Shown: one piece after another, positions 8,645-30,016 of the stretch
How the letters are laid out: every line of letters begins with the position of its first letter
Position numbering within the stretch: position 1 is the first letter of the stretch
DNA from: a virus
Direction: 5' to 3' (one strand)
Length of the DNA: 30,104 nt
Virus record (IMG/VR): IMGVR_UViG_3300029521_000019
Location: 1 to 30,104 of that record
Program-made: the position numbers and the translations under genes
Notes under the pieces: generated by a model
What the model saw: only the letters and a program-made list of their open reading frames with translations
What the model was told of the DNA's origin: nothing
The model's database searches: none

Positions 8645-8680
8645 TTGACGTGTATCTAATACGTGTATATAATGATATAC
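8645..8680 (+). promoter_or_regulatory. Promoter (TTGACG-17-TATAAT) with an overlapping palindromic operator GTATATAATGATATAC
   Basis: The -35 is at 8645..8650 and the -10 at 8668..8673. The operator (8665..8680) matches the operator core at 27766..27781 and 29684..29699 at 15 of 16 positions. Confidence 0.6.
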
Positions 8681-8724: not shown

Positions 8725-8814
8725 ATGCCGGAAGAATGGAGCATGGCGCGTAAAGTTGCTACATGGTTATTTATTATAGCCTTGCCGTTTCTCGGAAGCT
8801 TGGACTCGTTTTAG
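8725..8814 (+). CDS. Possible 29-aa membrane micro-peptide
   Basis: MPEEWSMARKVATWLFIIALPFLGSLDSF follows GGAG by 8 nt and has one hydrophobic segment. The longer track ORF from 8632 starts upstream of, and runs through, the promoter. Confidence 0.25.
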   Translation: MPEEWSMARKVATWLFIIALPFLGSLDSF

Positions 8815-8832
8815 AATACGAAAGGAACCATC

Positions 8833-9138
8833 ATGCAGTACACGACTGAAGAACTTCAAACTACTCTTGATCTCCACAAAAAATGGCTATACAACAAGGA
8901 AGAAGGAAAACGCGCTGACATGCGCTTCGCTGACCTGCGCTTCGCTGACCTGCGCTTCGCTGACCTGCGCTTCGCTGACCTGCGCGACGCTGACCTGCGC
9001 GGCGCTGACCTGCGCTTCGCTAACCTGCGCGGCGCTGACATTAGCGACGCTGACCTGCGCGACGCTAACATGAGTGGCGCTAAAAACATCCCTGAAATAG
9101 CATGTTTTATTACGCGGGCAGAAGCAGAGAATTACTAG
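8833..9138 (+). CDS. Pentapeptide-repeat protein
   Basis: There are 11 consecutive A(D/N)LxX pentapeptides (ADMRF ADLRF x3 ADLRD ADLRG ...). The RBS is CGAAAGGAAC. Confidence 0.85.
   Translation: MQYTTEELQTTLDLHKKWLYNKEEGKRADMRFADLRFADLRFADLRFADLRDADLRGADLRFANLRGADISDADLRDANMSGAKNIPEIACFITRAEAENY
8914..9078 (+). repeat. 15-bp tandem repeat (11 units) encoding the pentapeptide repeats
   Basis: GCTGACCTGCGCTTC is repeated exactly three times (8929..8973) and is flanked by diverged copies. Confidence 0.9.
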
Positions 9139-9367: not shown

Positions 9368-9408
9368 CGTGCATCTTTTTGTTGTGCGCTTAAACCGAAA
9401 GGAACATT

Positions 9409-10098
9409 ATGAGTGATGGTATCGAAAAGCTGAAAGAATGCGCTTACGACATGGATCAGATGCAATGCGATGACGTTTTAGTGTTAGCAGATCAAATCGA
9501 GCGTGAGCATGCATCAGAGTTGCAGGCGATCGAAGCCGAGATGGACAAGCGCCTGATGCCTCCGGGGATGGAGTGGCCGAAAGACCGCAACGAAAACCCG
9601 TTCGACCCTCGCAAGCTGTACGACAGCGGATGCGGAGCCGTTGACTTTGTTCGAATCGGGTTCGTCAACGGCGAGCAATGGGCAAGCGTCGTGTCGCACG
9701 ATGGGAACGATCTTTTGCCCGAAGAGCTTGGCGATTGCGAACCAGAGGTGCTAGGAGCGGATGGCCTGCCGATCAAGGTTGGCGAGACGGTGTGGTACGT
9801 GGGCGAACCCCTAGTGCGCGGAACCGTCGAAGCCGTCGGCGAGGGCGAGGTGATGCTGGCTGGCGACGGCGTGTATGCGCCCTTAGACCTCACCCACACC
9901 CAACCCGACCTTAAACTGCGTAAGTGCCCATTTTGCGGCGGAGAGGCCGACATGGTCGACGAAGGATCCGAGTGCTCGCCTGATCGGTTCTGGGCGTACT
10001 GCACGAATCCCAGCTGCTTCGTCGAAGGGACGGGCGTTTACGCGACGGAAGAGGAAGCCGCGCAAGCATGGAATACCCGCGTAGAATACAATATCTAG
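9409..10098 (+). CDS. Protein with a C-terminal Lar-like (restriction alleviation family) zinc ribbon
   Basis: The C-terminus reads LRKCPFCGGEADMV...YCTNPSCFVEG...ATEEEAAQAWNTR, matching the Lar-family pattern CPFCGG...C..C...eeA..aWN.R. The N-terminal ~165 aa were not recognised. The RBS is CCGAAAGGAAC. Confidence 0.6.
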   Translation: MSDGIEKLKECAYDMDQMQCDDVLVLADQIEREHASELQAIEAEMDKRLMPPGMEWPKDRNENPFDPRKLYDSGCGAVDFVRIGFVNGEQWASVVSHDGNDLLPEELGDCEPEVLGADGLPIKVGETVWYVGEPLVRGTVEAVGEGEVMLAGDGVYAPLDLTHTQPDLKLRKCPFCGGEADMVDEGSECSPDRFWAYCTNPSCFVEGTGVYATEEEAAQAWNTRVEYNI

Positions 10099-11548: not shown

Positions 11549-11592
11549 AGGTCAGCCGGATAGCGGGTAGCATAGCCATAACGTAACGAATG

Positions 11593-11617
11593 GAGCCTTG
11601 GAAACAGGGCTCTTTTT
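11593..11617 (+). terminator. Rho-independent terminator closing the accessory island
   Basis: GAGCCTT / AGGGCTC form a 7-bp stem including one G-U pair, with loop GGAAAC, followed by TTTTT (11613..11617). Confidence 0.7.
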
Positions 11618-11901
11618 CGCTATAATAGTGGCATGCTCACAACATGGCTATATAGCCCGAGGCGTATGCGAACCTGTGACACTCGCGCATACTGGCACCG
11701 AAGGCGTTGAAGATGTTGCCATATTTTTTTTTGGGGTCGAACCCCTATAGGTCTGCATATCAAAAGTCGCAAGCAACATAATCTACCTAGTTGACCGACA
11801 AAGGTTGACGACGAGTGCAGTATCCGCTCCTGATAAACAATACTTATCCTAATGACTAAAATCCATATGAGTTATACCGCATTTATGCGGTGTAACGACG
11901 T

Positions 11902-11940
11902 GGAGGGGAGCGGGAGGGGAGGCCGGAACGTCCTCCCCTC
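11902..11940 (+). other. G-rich direct repeat (GGAGGGGAG / GGAGGGGAG-G) plus a perfect 9-bp hairpin GAGGGGAGG...CCTCCCCTC
   Basis: The arms are 11914..11922 and 11932..11940. A second G-rich copy at 11902..11910 could pair with the same C-rich arm. No T-tract follows. Confidence 0.6.
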
Positions 11941-12038
11941 GCACCGTACAGCAAGGTAGCAGCGTTAGCGTCAACCGGACGGCTTAATAGCTACGGCCAT
12001 AACTCTATGATCGCCCCATGATCGCGTAAAACGCTATG

Positions 12039-12079
12039 CGGTACGATTTTCGTACCGGTGGTACGATTTTCGTACCGGT
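12039..12079. repeat. Two tandem 20-bp units GGTACGATTTTCGTACCGGT, each an inverted repeat
   Basis: 12040..12059 equals 12060..12079. The arms are CGGTACGA / TCGTACCG with a TTT spacer. The units lie about 50 to 90 bp upstream of the late-operon -10. Confidence 0.9.
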
Positions 12080-12127
12080 ATGCCGAATCTAAGCTTCGTA
12101 TACTGTTGATCATGCGTTTACCATATA

Positions 12128-12136
12128 TGCTATAAT
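12128..12136 (+). promoter_or_regulatory. Candidate late-operon promoter, extended -10 TGCTATAAT
   Basis: A perfect TGnTATAAT lies about 90 nt upstream of the scaffold gene start. No clear -35 is present. Confidence 0.5.
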
Positions 12137-12223
12137 TCAGGTAGCATTGCGGCCGCTTGAGCGCCGCCCGTCCATTAGCGCTAGCCACGCTTAAAAGCAG
12201 GCTTTACGGATAGGAGCATCACC

Positions 12224-12796
12224 GTGGAAAACATTCGGGAGATCGTAGCACGCCTAGGGATCGAGTGCGATGCGGCACAACTGGAGAAAGAGGTGCTGGC
12301 TAACTATCGTACTATCGCCGAGGTAGACGGTACGAAGGCCAAGATCGATGCGCTGAACGCCGACATCGAAGCACGCGACGCGCAAATCGCCGACCTGGGC
12401 AAAAAGGTTGACGAGTTGAGCGCTTCCGGTGCAGAGATCGAAGCTCTAAAGGCGCAGGTCGAACAATACCGTGCCAGCGAGCAAGAAGCGAAACAAAAAG
12501 CCGAGGCAGATGCGGCGAAGCAGCAGTTCGAGCAATCGTTCACCGATGCGCTCAAAGATCGCAAGTTCAGCAACGACTTCACCCGCCGAGCCGTCATGGA
12601 GGAAGTGCGCAAGATGCGCGAGACCGACAGCGTAAGCGGCCTCGAAGCGTTGATCGATCAGGTTACCAAGGACGTACCCGATGTGTGGTTCAACCCGAAC
12701 AAGCCCAACCCGCAGACAGTTCCCGCCCCTACTGACAATGCGGCAAAAGTCGAACTTAACAACGTTCGCGAAATCATGGGGCTACCTACAGAATAA
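12224..12796 (+). CDS. Scaffolding protein (GP20-like)
   Basis: GTG start follows AGGAG by 8 nt. The product is a highly charged Ala/Glu/Lys-rich coiled coil and lies immediately upstream of the major capsid gene. Confidence 0.8.
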   Translation: MENIREIVARLGIECDAAQLEKEVLANYRTIAEVDGTKAKIDALNADIEARDAQIADLGKKVDELSASGAEIEALKAQVEQYRASEQEAKQKAEADAAKQQFEQSFTDALKDRKFSNDFTRRAVMEEVRKMRETDSVSGLEALIDQVTKDVPDVWFNPNKPNPQTVPAPTDNAAKVELNNVREIMGLPTE

Positions 12797-15882: not shown

Positions 15883-15907
15883 CCAACAATCGCAAATATG
15901 ATATAAT

Positions 15908-15937
15908 GACAGCGCCGGGAATAATCTCGGCGCTGTC
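15908..15937 (+). other. Perfect 10-bp stem-loop GACAGCGCCG...CGGCGCTGTC without a T-tract
   Basis: The arms are 15908..15917 and 15928..15937. Located after the major tail gene, it may act as an mRNA stabiliser or partial terminator that sets tail-tube stoichiometry. Confidence 0.6.
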
Positions 15938-15954
15938 CTACGTTAGGGGTGCTT

Positions 15955-16317
15955 ATGATTTACACAGACGAAAACGGCATTGAGTTCGACCTTGCTCCGC
16001 GAACCGAGAAAGATCAGGCGGCGTGGAAGTCGGCACGAACAGCCAAGGAAAAATTAGACTTGCTAAAGCTATCGTTCGACGATGCTTACCTCACTGAAAA
16101 GTTAGGCTCGACGCAAGCGGCTAAGCTCGATGCAGACGCGCTTGGCATCATGTTCGATAAAGTGCACATGGCGTATGAAGCTCCCGCCGTAGCGGCTCGT
16201 ATCGAGCAGTTTAGCGGCCAGTTTGCAGGTATTAGTGACCTAGTAGGGTCGCTAAACAGCATCACCGAGGCAACTAATGTTACCGGTAGCCGACAAGGGT
16301 TCTCGCGCGTAAAATGA
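15955..16317 (+). CDS. Tail assembly chaperone (putative)
   Basis: It sits between the major tail and tape measure genes. ATG 15955 follows TAGGGGTG, with GTG 15949 as an alternative. Confidence 0.5.
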   Translation: MIYTDENGIEFDLAPRTEKDQAAWKSARTAKEKLDLLKLSFDDAYLTEKLGSTQAAKLDADALGIMFDKVHMAYEAPAVAARIEQFSGQFAGISDLVGSLNSITEATNVTGSRQGFSRVK

Positions 16318-16880: not shown

Positions 16881-16932
16881 CGTGGTAGAATAGCACTAAA
16901 TCGGCAGGGGTGTCGATTAGAGGGATGCTATT

Positions 16933-22194: not shown

Positions 22195-24920
22195 TGATAG
22201 TACTAAAGCTTGCAGACGGTAGTACTCTACACGACGTGCGCGATAATAACCGGCAAGTAGTCGGGTATATTTCCGACGCTAAAAACGCCGTTGGTACGCT
22301 AGATTTCGACATATACCCGAAACATCCTGCTTATAACGCCATTAAGGCTGGAAGCACGAAGATACGAGCATATCGTGACGGCATGTGGACGCATGATTAC
22401 ACGGTAGAGAGCGTGACGAACGACCTGCAGCTAAAAAAGCATGTTACCGCAACGGACGAATTGCAGTACCTAGAGCGCATCGAAGTACCATCGTACAAGA
22501 CAGGCGTTGATGGCGTACCGCAGACGGTTAGCGGGTTGTTTATGTGGCTCATCGAGTACTACAACGCTCGAAGCGGTGGAGAGCGTTTCGCGTTTGGCCA
22601 GATCGAGGGCGATATCATTGATCCTACAAAGACGCTGGATCGCAGCAGCGATAGCCCGGCAACAGTGGCTAGCATCGTCAAAGATAAGATCATCGATTCG
22701 CTTGGCGGTTACGTGCGCGTGCGTCGCGTCGATGGCGTGCTTACGATTGACCTCAAGGCTGATGCTGCCGGTGTTTGCCATCAGTATATCGAGTTCGGCG
22801 AGAACCTGGTTGATTATGCCGACGAGCAGGACGCGAGCGAGCTATACACCGCGGTCACGGCCGAAAGCAAGTACAAGGACGATAATGGCGACGAGGTTAC
22901 TGTAACGTTATCAGACGCGCCCGATGGCGATTACCTTGCTGGTTATGTAAAGAAAGGTGATACGGTAACTAATACCGCAGCAGCAGCAGCATACGGAGTT
23001 CGTCGCAAGCACCTAACGTTTGACGTGGTTAAAAACGTATATACTCTTGTCGAAAATTGCGAAAAGTATATAGCAGCTCATTGCGAGCCTGTCACCACTG
23101 TTAACGTAAGCGCTGCCGACCTATCAACGCTTGATAGTAACGTCCAGTCGTTTGATGTTGGGCTTTATACGCGAGTCAAGGCTGCCCCGATGGGCTTTGA
23201 TGCGGCGTTTGAGTGCCAGGTCGCCAAGCGCAGCCTTAACGACCCCACTGAGGATAAATACACGCTGGGATGGACGTGGGGCAGCCTGTCATCGATCAAC
23301 AACCGCAAGATCGTTGAGACGGCTCTAGGCATCGGCAAGCTGGAGCAAGCAACCACAGAGATAGATCAGGCTGCTAAAGACGCGGCGCAAAAGGCGCAGA
23401 CTGCGCAGGATGTTGCGATCGCGGCAAACATAAATGCTACTGATGCAGTAACAAAAGCAGACAGCGCCAAAGAAGAAGCGACAAGCGCGAGCGATACTGC
23501 ACAACGCGCAGAAGCGATATCTGCGGAAGCAAAGCAGACCGCAACGCAAGCAAATGGGGTTGCGCAAGACGCGAGCGAAACCGCTTCGACAGCGGCAATC
23601 ACGGCGGCGCAGGCTGGCGCAACAGCTACCGAGGCAAAGCAGACAGCAACGCAAGCAGCAAGCGACCTATCGAATTATGCGACTAATACCAACCTGATGC
23701 TGAAGGATATGCAAGGCCAGATCGACGGAAGCATCACGACATGGTTCTTCGCGGTTCCTCCGACAAACGAAAACGCACCAGCTAATGAGTGGACGACAAC
23801 CGACCTCAAAAATAAACACCTTGGAGACTTGTACTACGACACCAACACCGGCTACTCGTACCGATGGCAAGTGCTCCAAAGCGTTTACTCTTGGCAGCGT
23901 ATTACCGACGTTGATGTTACCAAGGCGCTTGCTGATGCCTCTAAGGCGCAGGATACCGCAGACGCTAAGCGTCGCGTATTTTACTCGCAGCCTGTGCCGC
24001 CTTATGACAAGGGCGATCTTTGGAGCCAAGGCACAAACGGCGATATGCTCATATGCTCAACGCCTAAAACAGACGGCATGAGCTATCTCGCATCAGACTG
24101 GGACAAGGCCAGCAAGTACACAGACGATACAAAGGCTATTGAGGCCGAGGGATTAGCAGAAGAGGCAGCAAAGACAGCAACGGACTTTATCGACTTTGGA
24201 GCTGATGGGCTTATTGTCGGCGATATGACGGATGGTGCCCTTGCCGGCAACGTGCGAATCGCCTCGGACGGTATCGAGCTAAGGGACGGTACAAGCGTAC
24301 TAGCGCGCCTTAAAGCTGGATTGCTAGAGCTAGCTGCAAACTCCGTTAACGCCATTATTAAGCTGTGCGGAGGTAAAGGAATTATCGCTTATTATGCCGG
24401 CACTGATCAGCTTGCCATTATGTCGCCCGGCTCTATCGCTATGGCGGCATGCCAGACGCTACCAGACGGAACGGTGCAGCCATACGACTCCGGCGTAGCA
24501 TGCAACAAAAGCGGCGTTCTTTTGAAGGGTGCCGTGGAGGCTTCCGGCACCTTCAAGATCAACGGCAATAACATGGCAGACTACGTGGTAGCCCAGGGCA
24601 CGAGCGGCATCTGGCGGTGGCGCAAGTGGTCTTCGGGGTTGGCCGAGTGCTGGGGCAATACGTCTACTCCGACGAACACGAACCTGCCGTGGGAGGGTAT
24701 GAGATACGACGGGACGATGCGCGGAGGCCACGCCCTCCCGTTCGCCCTTACGCGGATCATACATTCAGACGTTACCATCGAAGACCCTGGCGGCGGAGCG
24801 TTCTGGCCAGGCGTGCATACGGTGTTCAAGGACAAAGCCCCGAAGTTCTTCGTACTTAGCGTCGGCAACTATTCTAGGACGATATACCTGCACTACTACG
24901 TTACCGGGACATGGAAGTGA
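22194..24920 (+). CDS. Tail-associated (Tal-like) minor structural protein / tail fibre
   Basis: The 908-aa product has an N-terminus like the phage minor structural protein N-terminal region. An Ala/Thr/Gln-rich coiled coil lies centrally (about 23330..23670), followed by a C-terminal globular domain. Confidence 0.7.
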   Translation: MIVLKLADGSTLHDVRDNNRQVVGYISDAKNAVGTLDFDIYPKHPAYNAIKAGSTKIRAYRDGMWTHDYTVESVTNDLQLKKHVTATDELQYLERIEVPSYKTGVDGVPQTVSGLFMWLIEYYNARSGGERFAFGQIEGDIIDPTKTLDRSSDSPATVASIVKDKIIDSLGGYVRVRRVDGVLTIDLKADAAGVCHQYIEFGENLVDYADEQDASELYTAVTAESKYKDDNGDEVTVTLSDAPDGDYLAGYVKKGDTVTNTAAAAAYGVRRKHLTFDVVKNVYTLVENCEKYIAAHCEPVTTVNVSAADLSTLDSNVQSFDVGLYTRVKAAPMGFDAAFECQVAKRSLNDPTEDKYTLGWTWGSLSSINNRKIVETALGIGKLEQATTEIDQAAKDAAQKAQTAQDVAIAANINATDAVTKADSAKEEATSASDTAQRAEAISAEAKQTATQANGVAQDASETASTAAITAAQAGATATEAKQTATQAASDLSNYATNTNLMLKDMQGQIDGSITTWFFAVPPTNENAPANEWTTTDLKNKHLGDLYYDTNTGYSYRWQVLQSVYSWQRITDVDVTKALADASKAQDTADAKRRVFYSQPVPPYDKGDLWSQGTNGDMLICSTPKTDGMSYLASDWDKASKYTDDTKAIEAEGLAEEAAKTATDFIDFGADGLIVGDMTDGALAGNVRIASDGIELRDGTSVLARLKAGLLELAANSVNAIIKLCGGKGIIAYYAGTDQLAIMSPGSIAMAACQTLPDGTVQPYDSGVACNKSGVLLKGAVEASGTFKINGNNMADYVVAQGTSGIWRWRKWSSGLAECWGNTSTPTNTNLPWEGMRYDGTMRGGHALPFALTRIIHSDVTIEDPGGGAFWPGVHTVFKDKAPKFFVLSVGNYSRTIYLHYYVTGTWK

Positions 24921-24964
24921 TACTTGCCGCACGGTGCGAAAGAAGGTAGAACGCATATTAGAAA

Positions 24965-24973
24965 TGCTATAAT
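24965..24973 (+). promoter_or_regulatory. Candidate extended -10 promoter TGCTATAAT
   Basis: A perfect TGnTATAAT lies 45 nt after the Tal stop. No -35 is present. Confidence 0.4.
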
Positions 24974-24979
24974 GGTACT

Positions 24980-25040
24980 TGTGAGGTAACAATACCTCAT
25001 ACACCCCTGCTAAAGAGTCGGCAAAACGTCGGCTCTTTTT
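24980..25040 (+). ncRNA. Candidate ~60-nt sRNA (RNA-A): 5' hairpin, C-rich linker, terminator
   Basis: The hairpin is TGAGGTA-ACAA-TACCTCA (24982..24999), the linker is ACACCCCTGCTAA, and the terminator is at 25012..25040. It is antisense to the 3' end of the minus-strand micro-ORF. This is a prediction only. Confidence 0.3.
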
Positions 25041-25111
25041 GCTACAACAGCAAGCACAGCAGCACGGATGCTTGCAAAAAGATATGACTTATGCGATAAT
25101 GCAATAACCAT
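25010..25111 (-). CDS. Candidate 33-aa micro-ORF, the only supported minus-strand ORF in the window
   Basis: MVIALSHKSYLFASIRAAVLAVVAKRADVLPTL. The ATG is preceded by the extended SD GGGAAAGGAGTGAAC at optimal spacing. No convincing minus-strand promoter was found. Confidence 0.3.
   Translation of the reverse strand: MVIALSHKSYLFASIRAAVLAVVAKRADVLPTL
25012..25040 (+). terminator. Rho-independent terminator (end of the late operon)
   Basis: GAGTCGGC / GTCGGCTC form an 8-bp stem with two G-U pairs and loop AAAAC, followed by TTTTT. Confidence 0.7.
25072..25100 (+). promoter_or_regulatory. Candidate promoter TTGCAA-N17-GATAAT with a TG extension (TGCGATAAT)
   Basis: The -35 is at 25072..25077, the TGn at 25092..25094 and the -10 at 25095..25100. 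Confidence 0.5.
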
Positions 25112-25172
25112 GTTCACTCCTTTCCCTCATGGTTCCTTTCGGAAAAGCCCCTGCTAACGCGGGGGCTTTTGC
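25106..25172 (+). ncRNA. Candidate ~65-nt sRNA (RNA-B) carrying anti-SD-like sequences
   Basis: The 5' hairpin is AACCATG / CATGGTT (25106..25112 and 25128..25134) with loop TTCACTCCTTTCCCT. GGTTCCTTTCGG follows, then the terminator at 25143..25172. It is antisense to the SD and start of the minus-strand micro-ORF. This is a prediction only. Confidence 0.35.
25143..25172. terminator. Bidirectional-looking terminator hairpin (A-tract, 9-bp GC-rich stem, T-tract)
   Basis: AAAAGCCCCTGC-TAAC-GCGGGGGCTTTT. Confidence 0.8.
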
Positions 25173-25196
25173 TTTATAATGCATGGAGGAGGTAAT

Positions 25197-25490
25197 ATGA
25201 CATCTTGTTTGGAAAATTGTTCAACCCATTCTGCCCACCAGAGGGCGATTGCACAGCATGACAAACGCCTTGATGCACACGGTGATGAGATTGATAACCT
25301 TCGCGAGTGCGTGGTGCGCCTCACGTCCCTGCAGGAATCAAACGCTAAGTGGAAGGATGTTGCAGAGGAGCGAATCGCTGCCTTGGAAGCCGCTCCATCA
25401 AAACGCTGGGACAACCTTGTCAACTACGTGGTTACTGCCATTGTAGCGTTGGTAATCGGTATGGTCGCCGGACAAATAGGACTCAACTAG
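25197..25490 (+). CDS. XhlA-like lysis-associated membrane protein (putative)
   Basis: ATG 25197 follows GGAGGAGG. An N-terminal coiled coil (HDKRLDAHGDEIDNLRE) is followed by a single C-terminal TM segment (NYVVTAIVALVIGMVAGQIG). It lies upstream of the holin and amidase, as in PBSX-type cassettes. Confidence 0.5.
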   Translation: MTSCLENCSTHSAHQRAIAQHDKRLDAHGDEIDNLRECVVRLTSLQESNAKWKDVAEERIAALEAAPSKRWDNLVNYVVTAIVALVIGMVAGQIGLN

Positions 25491-25502
25491 AGAGGATCAA
25501 AC

Positions 25503-25715
25503 ATGATCGACAAAGCAACAGACGCATTTATCGAGTGGTGCGCAAGGGATACGGCATCGGCGCGCTTCCAGCGCTCGATTGTCCAGGGCGTTATCGGTGT
25601 GGCGGTTGGCGGGTTGACTACCGGCGAATGGACTGGCGCGGTTGTTGTCGGCCTTGTGATGGCCGTTATCGCACCGGTACAAAAAGCAATCGGCAACAAA
25701 GGGGAGGTAGAATAG
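25503..25715 (+). CDS. Holin (putative)
   Basis: The 70-aa product has two hydrophobic segments (VIGVAVGGL, AVVVGLVMAVIAP) and a charged C-terminus. It lies immediately upstream of the endolysin. Confidence 0.65.
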   Translation: MIDKATDAFIEWCARDTASARFQRSIVQGVIGVAVGGLTTGEWTGAVVVGLVMAVIAPVQKAIGNKGEVE

Positions 25716-26693
25716 ATGGACTGGGAAGGCTTGAACGCAGACGTGGAGATGATCCTGCCGCGCAATTTCACCAGCGGCAGGTACGGCTCGATCCAGGCGG
25801 TCACGATCCACCACATGGCGGGCGACCTGAGCATCGAGGACTGCTACAGGACGTGGCTCAACAGCTCGACTTCCGCCCACTACGCCGTGCAGTCGGACGG
25901 CACGGTCGGTCAGCTCGTAAACGACTGGGACACCGCCTGGGCGTGCGGAAACGACTGGGCGAACCCCAACACGATCAGCGTCGAGCACGCCAACGACGGC
26001 AGCTGGCCGTGGACGGTCGGCGAGGCGGCGCTGGACGCGGGGGCGCACCTCGTGGCTGCCATCTGCCGAAAGTACGGGCTCGGCCGCCCGGAGTGGATGG
26101 TGAACGTGTTCCCGCACAGCCACTGGTCGGCGACGCTCTGCCCCGGCGAGCTGGCCGGGTCGCAGAACGCGGAGTACATGCGCCGCGCAGGCGAGTGGTA
26201 CGACAGGATGGCTGGTGCGTCCGGCGAATGGGTGCGCGACGGGAAGGGCTGGTGGTACAGGCGCGCCGACGGCTCATGGCCGGCAGGAGAATGGCTCGCG
26301 CTCGACGCGTGGTACCGCTTCGGTGCTGACGGCTACGCCCTCACAGGATGGCAGCTGGTCGACGGCAAGTGGTACCTGTTCGGCGACGACTGCCGCATGC
26401 TAACCGGCTGGCAGAGCGTCGGGGAAAAGTGGTACTACCTGACCGGCTCCGGCGCGATGGCCACTGGTTGGGCGGATGTTGACGGAACGTGGTACTACCT
26501 CGACGAGTCTGGCGCGATGCAGACCGGATGGCTGCTCGACGGCGGCAAGTGGTACTGGCTCGACGAGTCGGGGGCGATGGCGCGCTCGACGTGCCGGAGC
26601 ATCGGCGGCAAGTGGTACGCCTTCGGATCGTCCGGCGCGATGATCTCCGGCAATGTGCCGACCGGCTCCGGCGGTGACATGGAGCTTGGGTAG
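25716..26693 (+). CDS. Endolysin: N-acetylmuramoyl-L-alanine amidase (Amidase_2/PGRP type) plus C-terminal cell-wall-binding repeats
   Basis: VTIHHMAG, SAHYAV and HSHWSATLCPG match amidase_2 zinc and active-site motifs. About six GW..DGKWYY..ESGAM.TGW repeats of the CW_binding_1 / choline-binding type follow. The gene is markedly GC-rich. Confidence 0.9.
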   Translation: MDWEGLNADVEMILPRNFTSGRYGSIQAVTIHHMAGDLSIEDCYRTWLNSSTSAHYAVQSDGTVGQLVNDWDTAWACGNDWANPNTISVEHANDGSWPWTVGEAALDAGAHLVAAICRKYGLGRPEWMVNVFPHSHWSATLCPGELAGSQNAEYMRRAGEWYDRMAGASGEWVRDGKGWWYRRADGSWPAGEWLALDAWYRFGADGYALTGWQLVDGKWYLFGDDCRMLTGWQSVGEKWYYLTGSGAMATGWADVDGTWYYLDESGAMQTGWLLDGGKWYWLDESGAMARSTCRSIGGKWYAFGSSGAMISGNVPTGSGGDMELG

Positions 26694-26813: not shown

Positions 26814-26846
26814 TATATACAGTTACAATCCGACGAAAGGAACACT

Positions 26847-27692
26847 ATGAATGAGATCGTAAAAATCAAGGACGACCGCGGGCAAGAACTTCAGATAACG
26901 CCAGACGACGTGCGAAACGTACTCTGTCCTTCTGCTAACGACAAAGAAATATCCATGTTCCTCGAATTGTGCCGTGCGCAGAACCTCAACCCGTTCATCA
27001 AAGATGCGTACCTCGTGAAGTACGGTAGCAACCCAGCAACGATTATCACCGGCAAGGAAGTGTTCACCAAGCGAGCAGCCAAGAACAAGAGTTACAAAGG
27101 GTTTGAGGCGGGCATTACGGTACAGCGCGGAAACAGCATCGAGCGCCGCGAAGGCAGCGCTGTATTCGATGGGGAAAAGCTATTAGGAGGTTGGGCGCGA
27201 GTACACGTTGATGGTAAGCATCCGTTTTTTGACGAGGTGGCGTTTAGCGAGTATTCGAGCGGAAAAAGCAACTGGGCGACCAAGCCAGGAACCATGATCC
27301 GCAAGGTAGCACTAGTCCACGCTCTCCGCGAAGCGTTCCCGGATGATTTCCAGGGGCTTTACAGCGCCGAGGAAATGGCGCAAGACACGCCGCAAGAGCC
27401 GCAAGAACAATCCTCGCAGCCCATTGAAGTCGAACCTGAACAAGTTATCGAACGCGACGAAAACATACATGCAGAATACGTAAAGGCTACTCGTGATGCC
27501 GTTGAGGCAGGAATTAAGCGCGAAGGTATCATGTCATGGTTTGAATCGCGGTTTGGCCATGAAATGGGGCATATTAACGATGCCGAAAAGCTTGCAACTA
27601 TCGAATGGTGCAAAGCACGAACGGCTGAAGCTAACGAGCTAAGCATCAATCCGCAAGAGCCTGTTCTTATGGATGATGATATAGCGTTTTAG
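26847..27692 (+). CDS. recT: RecT/Bet-family single-strand annealing recombinase
   Basis: LNPFIKDAYLVKYG, NWATKPGTMIRKVALVHALREAFPDDFQGLYSAEEM is the conserved RecT/Bet signature. The RBS is CGAAAGGAAC. Confidence 0.85.
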   Translation: MNEIVKIKDDRGQELQITPDDVRNVLCPSANDKEISMFLELCRAQNLNPFIKDAYLVKYGSNPATIITGKEVFTKRAAKNKSYKGFEAGITVQRGNSIERREGSAVFDGEKLLGGWARVHVDGKHPFFDEVAFSEYSSGKSNWATKPGTMIRKVALVHALREAFPDDFQGLYSAEEMAQDTPQEPQEQSSQPIEVEPEQVIERDENIHAEYVKATRDAVEAGIKREGIMSWFESRFGHEMGHINDAEKLATIEWCKARTAEANELSINPQEPVLMDDDIAF

Positions 27693-27745: not shown

Positions 27746-27782
27746 TTTACAGCACTAACAACTATGTATATAATAATATACA
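27746..27782 (+). promoter_or_regulatory. Promoter TTTACA-17-TATAAT overlapped by the 18-bp palindrome TGTATATAATAATATACA
   Basis: The -35 is at 27746..27751, the -10 at 27769..27774 and the palindrome at 27765..27782 (7-bp arms, 4-bp spacer). The palindrome is identical to 29683..29700. Confidence 0.65.
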
Positions 27783-27810
27783 TAAGGTAAGGCAAACGAA
27801 AGGAACGATC

Positions 27811-28677
27811 ATGGAAGCAACCATCATCGAGAACGAACTTGCAAGCGTTACAAGCGCGATAAGCATTGACCAGGACGCAATCGCCGATGCGCTAAAACGC
27901 ATGACCGCCGTCATCGACGAGAGCGAAAATCTATGCGAAGAATGCGAAGTTGACGGTGAAACGCTGGCGAGCATGGAGACTGCAGACGTAAAGCGGTTGC
28001 AGCAGGCGCTGAACGCGAAGATCACCGAAGGCAAGACGGCTCTAACCGATTTTAACCGCGTGTTCGATGCTCCTAAGAAAACCGTAAAGGCAGCGTATGA
28101 CAAGGCCGTAGAACCGCTTACAGCGCTTCAAGCGGCGTACAAGGCTCAACAGGTCGCAAACGAGCAACGCGAGAAAGACGAGAAGCGAGCGCAGCTGGAG
28201 GCTCATTTTTACGAGTATGCCGGCGTGCTTGATCATGTTGCGAATTACGATCAGGTGCATGACGATAAATGGCTGAACAAAGGGTGCGCGCTATCTAAAG
28301 CATTCGGCGAAATCGAAACTATTGTTGACGGCATCGCGAAAAGCTGGCAAACGCTAAAGACGCTCGACCTGCCAATGTTCGACGTTGCCGAACGAACGTT
28401 TTTTACCACCTTCGACCTTGACGCAGCAATAAGCGCGGCGAACCAAGCGCAGGCAGATCATGAGCGCATCGAAGCTCTAAAAGCAGAGCAAGCCGATATG
28501 ATGCAGCAGCGCGAAGAGGAAAAGCATGAGCAAGAGCCTGAACAAGAGCAGCCTAGCGTCAACGACGAGCCTCGCGCCGCTACGGTTGTTATCGAAGCGG
28601 CTACGCTGGAACAGTTGAAGCAACTCGCCGAATCTATGCGCAATATCGGGCTACACGGCACTATTAAGAGAGGGTAG
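27811..28677 (+). CDS. DUF1351-like recombination-module protein (function unknown)
   Basis: The 288-aa acidic coiled-coil-rich protein lies next to RecT and SSB, the usual context of DUF1351-type genes in Gram-positive siphophages. The RBS is CGAAAGGAAC. Confidence 0.45.
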   Translation: MEATIIENELASVTSAISIDQDAIADALKRMTAVIDESENLCEECEVDGETLASMETADVKRLQQALNAKITEGKTALTDFNRVFDAPKKTVKAAYDKAVEPLTALQAAYKAQQVANEQREKDEKRAQLEAHFYEYAGVLDHVANYDQVHDDKWLNKGCALSKAFGEIETIVDGIAKSWQTLKTLDLPMFDVAERTFFTTFDLDAAISAANQAQADHERIEALKAEQADMMQQREEEKHEQEPEQEQPSVNDEPRAATVVIEAATLEQLKQLAESMRNIGLHGTIKRG

Positions 28678-29663: not shown

Positions 29664-29700
29664 TTGACACCTTAGATTAACGTGTATATAATAATATACA
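29664..29700 (+). promoter_or_regulatory. Promoter TTGACA-17-TATAAT overlapped by the 18-bp palindrome TGTATATAATAATATACA
   Basis: The consensus -35 is at 29664..29669, the -10 at 29687..29692 and the palindrome at 29683..29700. Confidence 0.7.
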
Positions 29701-29731
29701 TGCAGTAAACAACAAACAGAAAGGAACTAAA

Positions 29732-30016
29732 ATGAACATCGATGGAGTAGATTACGTACCAGTATCAGAATTAGCGTCGTTCAATAATAGCGACCACGTG
29801 TGCGTTATCGCTGATCGCGGATGGATATTTGAAGGGTACCGCGAAGAAGGAACAACAAGGCTTACAAACGCTCATGTAGTGCGTAAATGGAGCAACGGTC
29901 TTGGAATCGGCGGGCTAGCTGATCCTGACTACAAAGATGATTATACTCTTGATAATATCGGCTGTATCGAATTATCACCTAACGCAATTATCGCGGTAAT
30001 ACCGTTGGAGTGGTAA
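29732..30016 (+). CDS. Hypothetical early protein
   Basis: The 94-aa ORF has the RBS GAAAGGAAC. It is the first gene of the operator-controlled two-gene operon that ends with the Gly-X repeat ORF. Confidence 0.55.
   Translation: MNIDGVDYVPVSELASFNNSDHVCVIADRGWIFEGYREEGTTRLTNAHVVRKWSNGLGIGGLADPDYKDDYTLDNIGCIELSPNAIIAVIPLEW

Follow-up and report, generated by a model that had tools for sequence, protein, structure and literature searches.

What is encoded in the 276-nucleotide (nt) gap between the tail protein gene (ending at 24920) and the XhlA-like lysis gene (starting at 25197) of a phage relative of Eggerthella lenta phage PMBT5 (genus Lentavirus)? The question was raised by positions 1 to 30,104 of the IMG/VR virus record IMGVR_UViG_3300029521_000019, a stretch of 30,104 nt, hereafter the window, which approximates a near-complete genome with all genes on the plus strand. 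The host, E. lenta, is a gut bacterium of medical relevance. PMBT5 is 87.6% identical to the window over the region 24400-25800, and its record carries no annotated feature between the tail protein gp27 and gp28. A preliminary description of the window had noticed in the gap two promoter-hairpin-terminator units on the plus strand around a minus-strand micro open reading frame (ORF), and had read them as a type I toxin-antitoxin-like locus. All of the listed elements were found in the sequence at the positions given (Table 1). As the overall best explanation we favour, at slightly better than even probability, a locus that encodes two plus-strand small RNAs (sRNAs) and also insulates the lysis cassette.

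The elements of the predicted RNAs exceed chance expectation. Folding of predicted RNA1 (24980-25042) gave z = -6.7 and that of predicted RNA2 (25107-25174) z = -5.0, with none of 200 shuffles folding as well in either case; the minus-strand reading of the same stretches gave z = -1.3 and -2.7, respectively. The motif TGnTATAAT occurred six times in the window, always on the plus strand, against 0.86 expected. Two more copies of the extended -10 sequence TGCTATAAT were located upstream of the genes at 12224 and 26847, and P1 thus represents a promoter type in use by the phage. Generic scans of the 2-kb region detected no excess of promoter-like sites (2 against 1.5 expected) or terminator-like sites (2 against 1.7). 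In each of the two units, a putative promoter of its own was accompanied by a putative intrinsic terminator, the combination expected of a short non-coding transcript. RNA1 contained no ORF, as GUG AGG UAA halts immediately, and no conserved ORF was found in the units on either strand. Small plus-strand ORFs of 29 or 15 amino acids (aa) in unit 2 were considered and rejected, with neither stop codon nor frame conserved. When the two units were compared as possible duplicates of one another, the likeness was weak (16.4 bits, E = 0.08). A search of the window for tRNA and tmRNA found none, and Rfam, whose families include 6C, RsaE and those of leaders, gave no match at the gathering threshold over the whole window; over the locus, nothing credible was obtained at E up to 10 either, the best match (32 bits against a threshold of 55) being driven by a terminator.

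Relatives were gathered by searching with the XhlA-like protein (homologues graded from 100% down to 55% identity) and supplemented with two metagenome matches. In the resulting set the locus was present in thirteen copies, eleven to twelve of them differing in sequence. They were divided into clade A (the window, PMBT5, L004-L010 and L019) and clade B (L011-L013, L026 and L031); L020 (ERZ27239236 k141_382957) was a recombinant, its unit 1 being of clade B and its unit 2 of clade A. Among the further scans, protein patterns of the XhlA-like gene yielded no relatives in JGI metagenomes and GTDB genomes, DNA patterns found PMBT5 as the sole match in IMG/VR, and only L026 and L031 were genuine among 18 matches of a metagenome pattern scan. 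L041, a single GTDB match, was rejected as a chance match.

Both promoter-hairpin-linker-terminator units were kept in thirteen relatives, despite swaps of the upstream tail gene, the spacer or the downstream gene. Only 6-11% of the last 300 nt of the tail gene aligned with PMBT5 and with the clade-B sequences L011 and L013, an extra plus-strand ORF of 60-66 aa lay between the tail gene and unit 1 in L010-L012, and in L026 (UZAT01375486.1) both units preceded a different gene for a small membrane protein, not xhlA. The conservation of the units was about equal to that of xhlA and the holin gene (79-98% identity), not higher. The preliminary description had asked whether the locus is conserved or replaced in related phages; conservation was borne out in these thirteen, and the distant XhlA loci L014-L017 carried no insert, the gene abutting its upstream neighbour. 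Covariance models of both units found no match in L014-L017 and no second copy in the window or PMBT5; from the lack of a unit in those distant loci, the cassette is confined to this phage group. In L018 (24-1244), which has a more distant XhlA/holin cassette, a gene for an IS110-family transposase lies immediately upstream on the opposite strand.

The putative promoters were among the constant parts of the locus. At P1, TGnTATAAT was invariant across both clades. The homology of L013 was lost upstream of about -20 relative to P1, which fits an extended -10 promoter with no need of a -35 element. At P2, the -35 hexamer TTGCAA, the 17-nt spacing, the TG and the -10 hexamer (G/A)ATAAT were constant in every relative, and the sequence of the spacer varied; such constant hexamers and spacing around a variable spacer, as read from this alignment, are the usual signature of a promoter. 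The TATAAT of candidate P3 and AGGAGG were likewise invariant in all relatives.

The changes within the stems pointed to the plus strand. In unit 1, 99% of the alignment cells were paired and five base pairs showed compensatory double changes (three of seven in hairpin 1, two of ten in terminator 1); in the control, in which the partners were slid by 1-3 columns, pairing fell to 38-51%. In unit 2 all stem changes were one-sided with pairing kept (A-U to G·U, C-G to U·G, U·G to U-A and G-C to G·U). The stems of both units together contained 21 cells that were G·U on the plus strand, corresponding to A·C mismatches on the minus strand, against one cell of the reverse kind, and the G·U/G-C alternation in terminator 1 kept pairing on the plus strand only. 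The plus-strand fold was also the more stable by minimum free energy (MFE) in 15 of 16 strand comparisons. From the G·U bias and the better plus-strand MFE, the folds look selected in a plus-strand RNA. Conserved structure with covariation on the strand of the predicted transcripts was found in this sample of only two clades. The conserved promoters, the stem changes and the plus-strand G·U pairs fit the two short plus-strand RNAs (about 60-70 nt), each with promoter, 5' hairpin and terminator, that the preliminary description had predicted, and units 1 and 2 are probably real structured RNAs of the plus strand.

The linker of RNA2 supplied the clue to a possible function. The reverse complement of its core GUUCCUUUCG was identical to the 10-nt ribosome-binding motif CGAAAGGAAC, found 3-4 nt before the ATG of four genes, with a copy matching at nine of ten positions at a fifth. 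The late structural and lysis genes were preceded by Shine-Dalgarno (SD) sequences of the AGGAG type and CGAAAGGAAC stood before no late gene; the phage thus has two classes of translation start, one early and one late. Five sites in the genome showed at least 10 nt of perfect complementarity to part of the RNA2 linker, four of them being these ribosome-binding sites (RBSs), and none of 1000 shuffled seeds reached five sites. The five early-gene start regions also made up five of the twelve best RNA2 duplex sites genome-wide. The core GUUCCUUUCG was constant in clade A and L026 and read GUCCUUUCG in L011 and L013. With the clade-B linker GGGUCCUUUCGU, the 9-nt core pairing ACGAAAGGA was kept (at least 9 bp), and the same early-gene RBSs exist in PMBT5. 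The match between linker and RBS suggests that RNA2 would be an anti-RBS regulator, although we hold this specific mechanism only tentatively, below even probability.

In the explanation that we favour, the gap would carry two tandem, independently transcribed genes for non-coding sRNAs on the plus strand, followed by the -10 element of the lysis cassette. Each unit would begin with a sigma-70 promoter of the host type that has an extended -10, and would continue through a 5' hairpin and a conserved single strand rich in pyrimidines to an intrinsic terminator. The linker GUUCCUUUCG of RNA2 would pair with CGAAAGGAAC before the start codons of the five early genes and block 30S binding, by which translation of these genes would be lowered or shut off. 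On read-through transcripts, the SD of the lysis gene may moreover be masked by the CU-rich loop of RNA2, and the lysis cassette would be insulated from the late structural operon by the two terminators. In its fullest form the proposal is that RNA2 serves as a riboregulator that reads the RBS CGAAAGGAAC as a 10-nt address of early anti-restriction, recombination and replication genes, switching off or tuning their translation during infection, and that RNA1 is a second regulator with a C-rich seed for host or tail-gene messages; this whole is possible, and somewhat less probable than the anti-RBS mechanism by itself.

Several points weigh against this explanation. The relatives are close, with an effective sequence number of 1.4-1.8, so that the compensatory pairs amount to about one clade split and the shuffle controls should not be read as probabilities. 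No double compensatory change is seen in unit 2. The starts and ends of the RNAs were placed by consensus motifs, and the promoters of Eggerthella are uncharacterised. The best duplex energies of the two seeds were ordinary, being equalled by 6 of 24 and 5 of 24 shuffles, and the GGUU part of the anti-RBS sits within the stem of hairpin 2. The single 10-nt match of RNA1 in the phage (16904) was at chance level, as 184 of 1000 shuffles reached it, and the predicted masking of the lysis-gene SD was no better than in composition-keeping controls. The minus-strand ORF stayed open through the length changes of clade A, which by our estimate has a chance probability of about p = 0.04 and is mildly surprising. 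Finally, the 10-mer read on the minus strand at 25141-25132 could be a real RBS of a minus-strand ORF, although it lies just 1 nt from its ATG instead of the 3-4 nt seen at real genes, and the 13-aa ORF that follows it is not conserved, shifts frame in clade B and has no promoter.

RNA1 carries an invariant C-rich stretch, ACACCCCUG, of the kind typical of SD-pairing seeds. Its best site in the phage was 16903-16912, upstream of the tape-measure gene, and this site is identical in PMBT5. The heptamer AGGGGTG, complementary to the seed CACCCCU of RNA1, occurred on the plus strand only twice, both times in the leader of a tail gene; as an RNA1 target the pair was statistically indistinguishable from chance. 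The target of RNA1 may be a host mRNA. Action of RNA1 as a trans antiterminator on terminator 2, by way of the shared CCCCTGCTAA, was considered and rejected since only 7 bp are possible between the two against a 12-bp cis hairpin. Mimicry of a CRISPR repeat (an RNA anti-CRISPR) found no support on inspection by eye: neither hairpin was similar to repeats of type I-C, whose 3' handle of the ATTGAAA type was not there. At 15899-15955, TGATATAAT (15899) precedes a 10-bp hairpin, after which comes AGGGGTG as the SD of the gene at 15955; at 16884-16932, the second AGGGGTG follows a TGGTAGAAT motif in the leader of the tape-measure gene.

Table 1. Features of the gap between the tail and lysis genes and predicted RNA2 target sites (window coordinates)
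Feature	Position	Strand	Remarks
Tail protein gene, 908 aa	ends 24920	+	upstream flank of the gap
P1, extended -10 promoter TGCTATAAT	24965-24973	+	without a good -35; would drive RNA1
Predicted RNA1, about 62 nt	24980-25041	+	start placed from the -10 position
Hairpin 1, TGAGGTA-ACAA-TACCTCA	24982-24999	+	5' hairpin of RNA1
C-rich linker of RNA1	25000-25011	+	invariant single-stranded UACACCCCUG at 25000-25009
Terminator 1, intrinsic (predicted)	25012-25040	+	3' end of RNA1
Variable spacer between the units	25042-25071	.	length differing by 0, +27 or +36 nt within clade A; unrelated sequence in clade B
P2, TTGCAA-17-TG-c-GATAAT, TG extension	25072-25100	+	from promoter scan; would drive RNA2
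Hairpin 2	25106-25134	+	15-nt CU-rich loop, variable
Predicted RNA2, about 68 nt	25107-25174	+	hairpin 2, linker and terminator 2 with U run
RNA2 linker/anti-RBS GGUUCCUUUCGG	25131-25142	+	near-invariant
Anti-RBS core GTTCCTTTCG	25132-25141	+	exact reverse complement of the RBS 10-mer CGAAAGGAAC
Terminator 2 (predicted)	25143-25170	+	from promoter/terminator scan
P3 candidate, -10 TATAAT	25175-25180	+	directly 3' of terminator 2
SD GGAGGAGG of XhlA-like gene	25185-25192	+	gene start 25197
XhlA-like gene	25197-25490	+	match to 'hemolysin' PHROG 937
Minus-strand micro-ORF, 33 aa (ATG) or 35 aa (GTG)	25111..25010	-	GGGAAAGGAGTGAAC upstream; judged non-gene
RBS CGAAAGGAAC, pentapeptide-repeat gene at 8833	8819-8828	+	predicted RNA2 target; complementarity 13 nt
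RBS, Lar-like restriction-alleviation gene at 9409	9396-9405	+	predicted RNA2 target
RBS, RecT gene at 26847	26834-26843	+	predicted RNA2 target
RBS, gene at 27811, counterpart of PMBT5 gp33 (DUF1351)	27797-27806	+	predicted RNA2 target
RBS AGAAAGGAAC (9/10), 94-aa gene at 29732	29718-29727	+	predicted RNA2 target

The alternative that survived best, itself unlikely, holds that the locus is transcriptional punctuation and a cis leader only. Terminator 1 would end the late operon, P2, hairpin 2 and terminator 2 would form a leader or attenuator of the lysis genes, and the short RNAs would be by-products with no trans function; CU-rich sequences would mask the SD and start of xhlA on read-through, and lysis translation would proceed only from P3 transcripts or after another factor has acted. 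The position of the locus immediately before the lysis genes agrees with this, as does the recurrence in the genome of the terminator-then-promoter layout seen at P3 (11592-11626, 27719-27774 and 29625-29692). The read-through fold paired the SD and AUG with the 5' arm and loop of hairpin 2, with an MFE of -39.8 against -28.7 for RNA2 alone, and the probability that the SD is unpaired was 0.01-0.25 in P2 read-through RNAs of clade A against 0.45-0.94 in RNAs starting at P3. When the 5' 24 nt were shuffled with composition kept, however, the SD of xhlA was masked equally well, and specific cis pairing is thus not demonstrated. Moreover, a single fold was dominant (frequency 0.54) with no alternative antiterminator fold, the loop varied with no matching change in the SD, and in L026 the cassette precedes a different gene. 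The weak Rfam matches are to leader families, but they lie far under threshold and are driven by terminators. A cis leader would also leave P1 and RNA1 unexplained, as hairpin 1, with its three compensatory pairs, and the invariant linker are unneeded for termination, and it offers no explanation of the exact 10-nt match to the early-gene RBSs.

A second alternative, to which we assign a still lower probability, retains trans-acting sRNAs and places their targets mainly among mRNAs or defence RNAs of the host E. lenta, the match to phage RBSs being a side effect of an anti-SD (16S-like) sequence. CU-rich and C-rich single strands are generic SD binders, RNA1 had no significant target in the phage genome, and phage sRNAs acting on host mRNAs are documented in the literature. 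The match of RNA2, on the other hand, reaches flanking bases (C...AAC) beyond the SD core, and only the early-gene class is matched; those flanking bases are not dictated by pairing with the 3' end of 16S rRNA.

The type I toxin-antitoxin reading, with the 33-aa minus-strand ORF (25111..25010) as toxin and both plus-strand RNAs as antisense antitoxins to its 3' end and to its SD and start, survived least and is very improbable. The geometry of ORF and RNAs does match the preliminary description, as the predicted plus-strand RNAs would overlap the 3' end and the start of the candidate ORF. The ORF was open in all nine clade-A variants despite in-frame changes of +27 and +36 nt, gene callers predicted it in some contigs, and a 10-mer of the phage RBS type lies on the minus strand at 25141-25132. 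The length of the ORF, by contrast, ranged from 33 aa (window) through 42 aa (L006-L008) to 45 aa (PMBT5) and was only 17 aa in clade B (L011/L012/L013), where the frame is cut, a finding that the preliminary description had itself named as speaking against the toxin. Its size is near chance expectation, and its centre lies in the replaceable, indel-bearing spacer. P2 read in reverse gives the conserved N-terminus, MVIAL(S/L)H..., and the N-terminal changes, mostly non-synonymous (S/L, V/A, SY/AD, L/F, K/S and one synonymous), spared the -35, TG and -10 positions of P2 as read by hand.

The properties of the peptide and its surroundings did not favour a toxin either. The remark that the peptide is not a clean transmembrane helix was confirmed, its best 19-residue Kyte-Doolittle mean being 1.33 in the window and 0.66 in PMBT5; with best 19-residue values of 0.66-1.6 across the variants, no hydrophobic helix was found. 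Four known type I toxins have 19-residue hydropathies of 2.2-2.5. The suspected weakness of the minus-strand promoter also held, as the scan found none near 25120-25200; the SD of the ORF lies directly behind the reverse image of terminator 2, which leaves no room for a minus-strand promoter. The unusually long SD is indeed present in the sequence, but it mirrors the CU-rich loop of hairpin 2. When 5.8 billion proteins were searched with the ORF product, only four clusters were returned, all from this locus. Stem evolution favours the plus strand, all other genes lie on the plus strand and the phage appears virulent. PMBT5 has been described as putatively virulent (PMC9394477), which removes the rationale of prophage maintenance for a toxin-antitoxin locus. 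From the sequence evidence, the micro-ORF was judged not to be a gene.

Known systems share parts of this picture. Trans-acting sRNAs of phages and prophages that pair with RBSs include DicF of the Qin prophage and sRNAs of Pseudomonas and Vibrio phages. The predicted RNAs resemble DicF-type sRNAs in being short, non-coding and intergenic in a phage, each with a putative promoter and intrinsic terminator to itself and, in RNA2, a putative single-stranded seed that matches RBSs; they have no sequence or Rfam relation to them, and the targets predicted here are early genes of the phage itself with one RBS motif. C- or CU-rich anti-SD sRNAs are represented by RsaE/RoxS and the UCCC-motif Rsa RNAs in Staphylococcus and by 6C RNA in Actinobacteria. 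As in RsaE/RoxS and 6C, unpaired pyrimidine-rich motifs lie between or on hairpins followed by a terminator, and pairing with G-rich SDs is presumed; unlike them, the RNAs of the locus are much shorter, phage-borne and not members of those Rfam families, with no match at the gathering threshold or at E up to 10. The RNAs match no described family; their kind, phage-encoded regulatory sRNAs, is already known. In the literature searched, no phage sRNA was described for Coriobacteriia (actinobacterial) hosts.

Other parallels are functional or positional. In phage T4, RegA is a translational repressor and RegB an endoribonuclease that cuts GGAG in early SDs (PMC3014915). The proposed shut-off of a class of early messages via their RBSs would be similar as a functional analogy only, as RegA and RegB are proteins and the effector here would be an RNA that base-pairs with a 10-nt RBS address. 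With bsrG/SR4, txpA/RatA and fst/RNAII, type I toxin-antitoxin loci of Gram-positive prophages, the locus would share small convergent or overlapping units and a short ORF opposite structured RNAs. It differs from them in that the ORF is unconserved, insufficiently hydrophobic and without a promoter, the selection on RNA is seen on the 'antitoxin' strand only and the phage is apparently no prophage. The pR'-tR' (6S RNA) leader of lambda likewise consists of a constitutive promoter and then a terminator giving a short RNA just upstream of the lysis cassette; here there are two units, and the lysis genes close the late region, whereas those of lambda lie at its start. No Q-type antiterminator or qut-like element for lambda-type antitermination was identified, none being present among the subset of proteins scanned or in the PMBT5 annotation, and no alternative fold was found.

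Downstream of the XhlA-like gene, the gene order was a putative holin (70 aa), an amidase endolysin with choline-binding repeats, and RecT. The start of the XhlA-like gene differed among the relatives (window 25183-25199 against L002 3141-3160), the ATG of the window being at 25197. PMBT5 and others have an 8-nt deletion at this start, so that the start there must be TTG or the annotated ATG, which lies within the SD; the start of PMBT5 gp28 is probably mis-annotated.

Further observations concern the regions around the early genes. A 16-nt palindrome, GTATATAATRATATAC, was found in three exact copies (8665-8680, 27766-27781 and 29684-29699) against 0.02 expected, and it overlaps the -10 of three strong sigma-70-like promoters (TTGACG, TTTACA or TTGACA, 17 nt, TATAAT). 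It looks like the operator of a phage regulator of early or anti-restriction operons. Between the promoter at 8645 and the pentapeptide-repeat gene, a possible ORF for a 29-aa hydrophobic peptide, MPEEWSMARKVATWLFIIALPFLGSLDSF, was seen by eye at 8725-8814. The non-coding stretch 11587-12223, of about 640 nt, contains a promoter embedded in a terminator (11592-11626), an inverted repeat rich in G (about 11900-11945), two tandem copies of GGTACGATTTTCGTACCGGT (about 12040-12080) and the TGCTATAAT promoter at 12128; a role as genome end, packaging region or origin is possible.

Few phages of E. lenta are in culture; the PMBT5-like phages, which belong to these few, are in development for microbiome editing (PMC9394477, PMC13131767). 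For such phages, the analysis removes a false lead, as there is no good evidence for a toxin gene, and it offers phage engineering a cassette in the form of a compact promoter, terminator and insulator module ahead of the lysis genes. With two conserved RNA genes, the regulation of this 30-kb genome would gain a post-transcriptional layer. If the proposal is true, an sRNA matched to a class-specific RBS would be a simple and testable model for the shut-off of early genes, the RNA counterpart of T4 RegA/RegB, and with the two RNAs regulatory RNAs would for the first time be described in a phage of gut Coriobacteriia.

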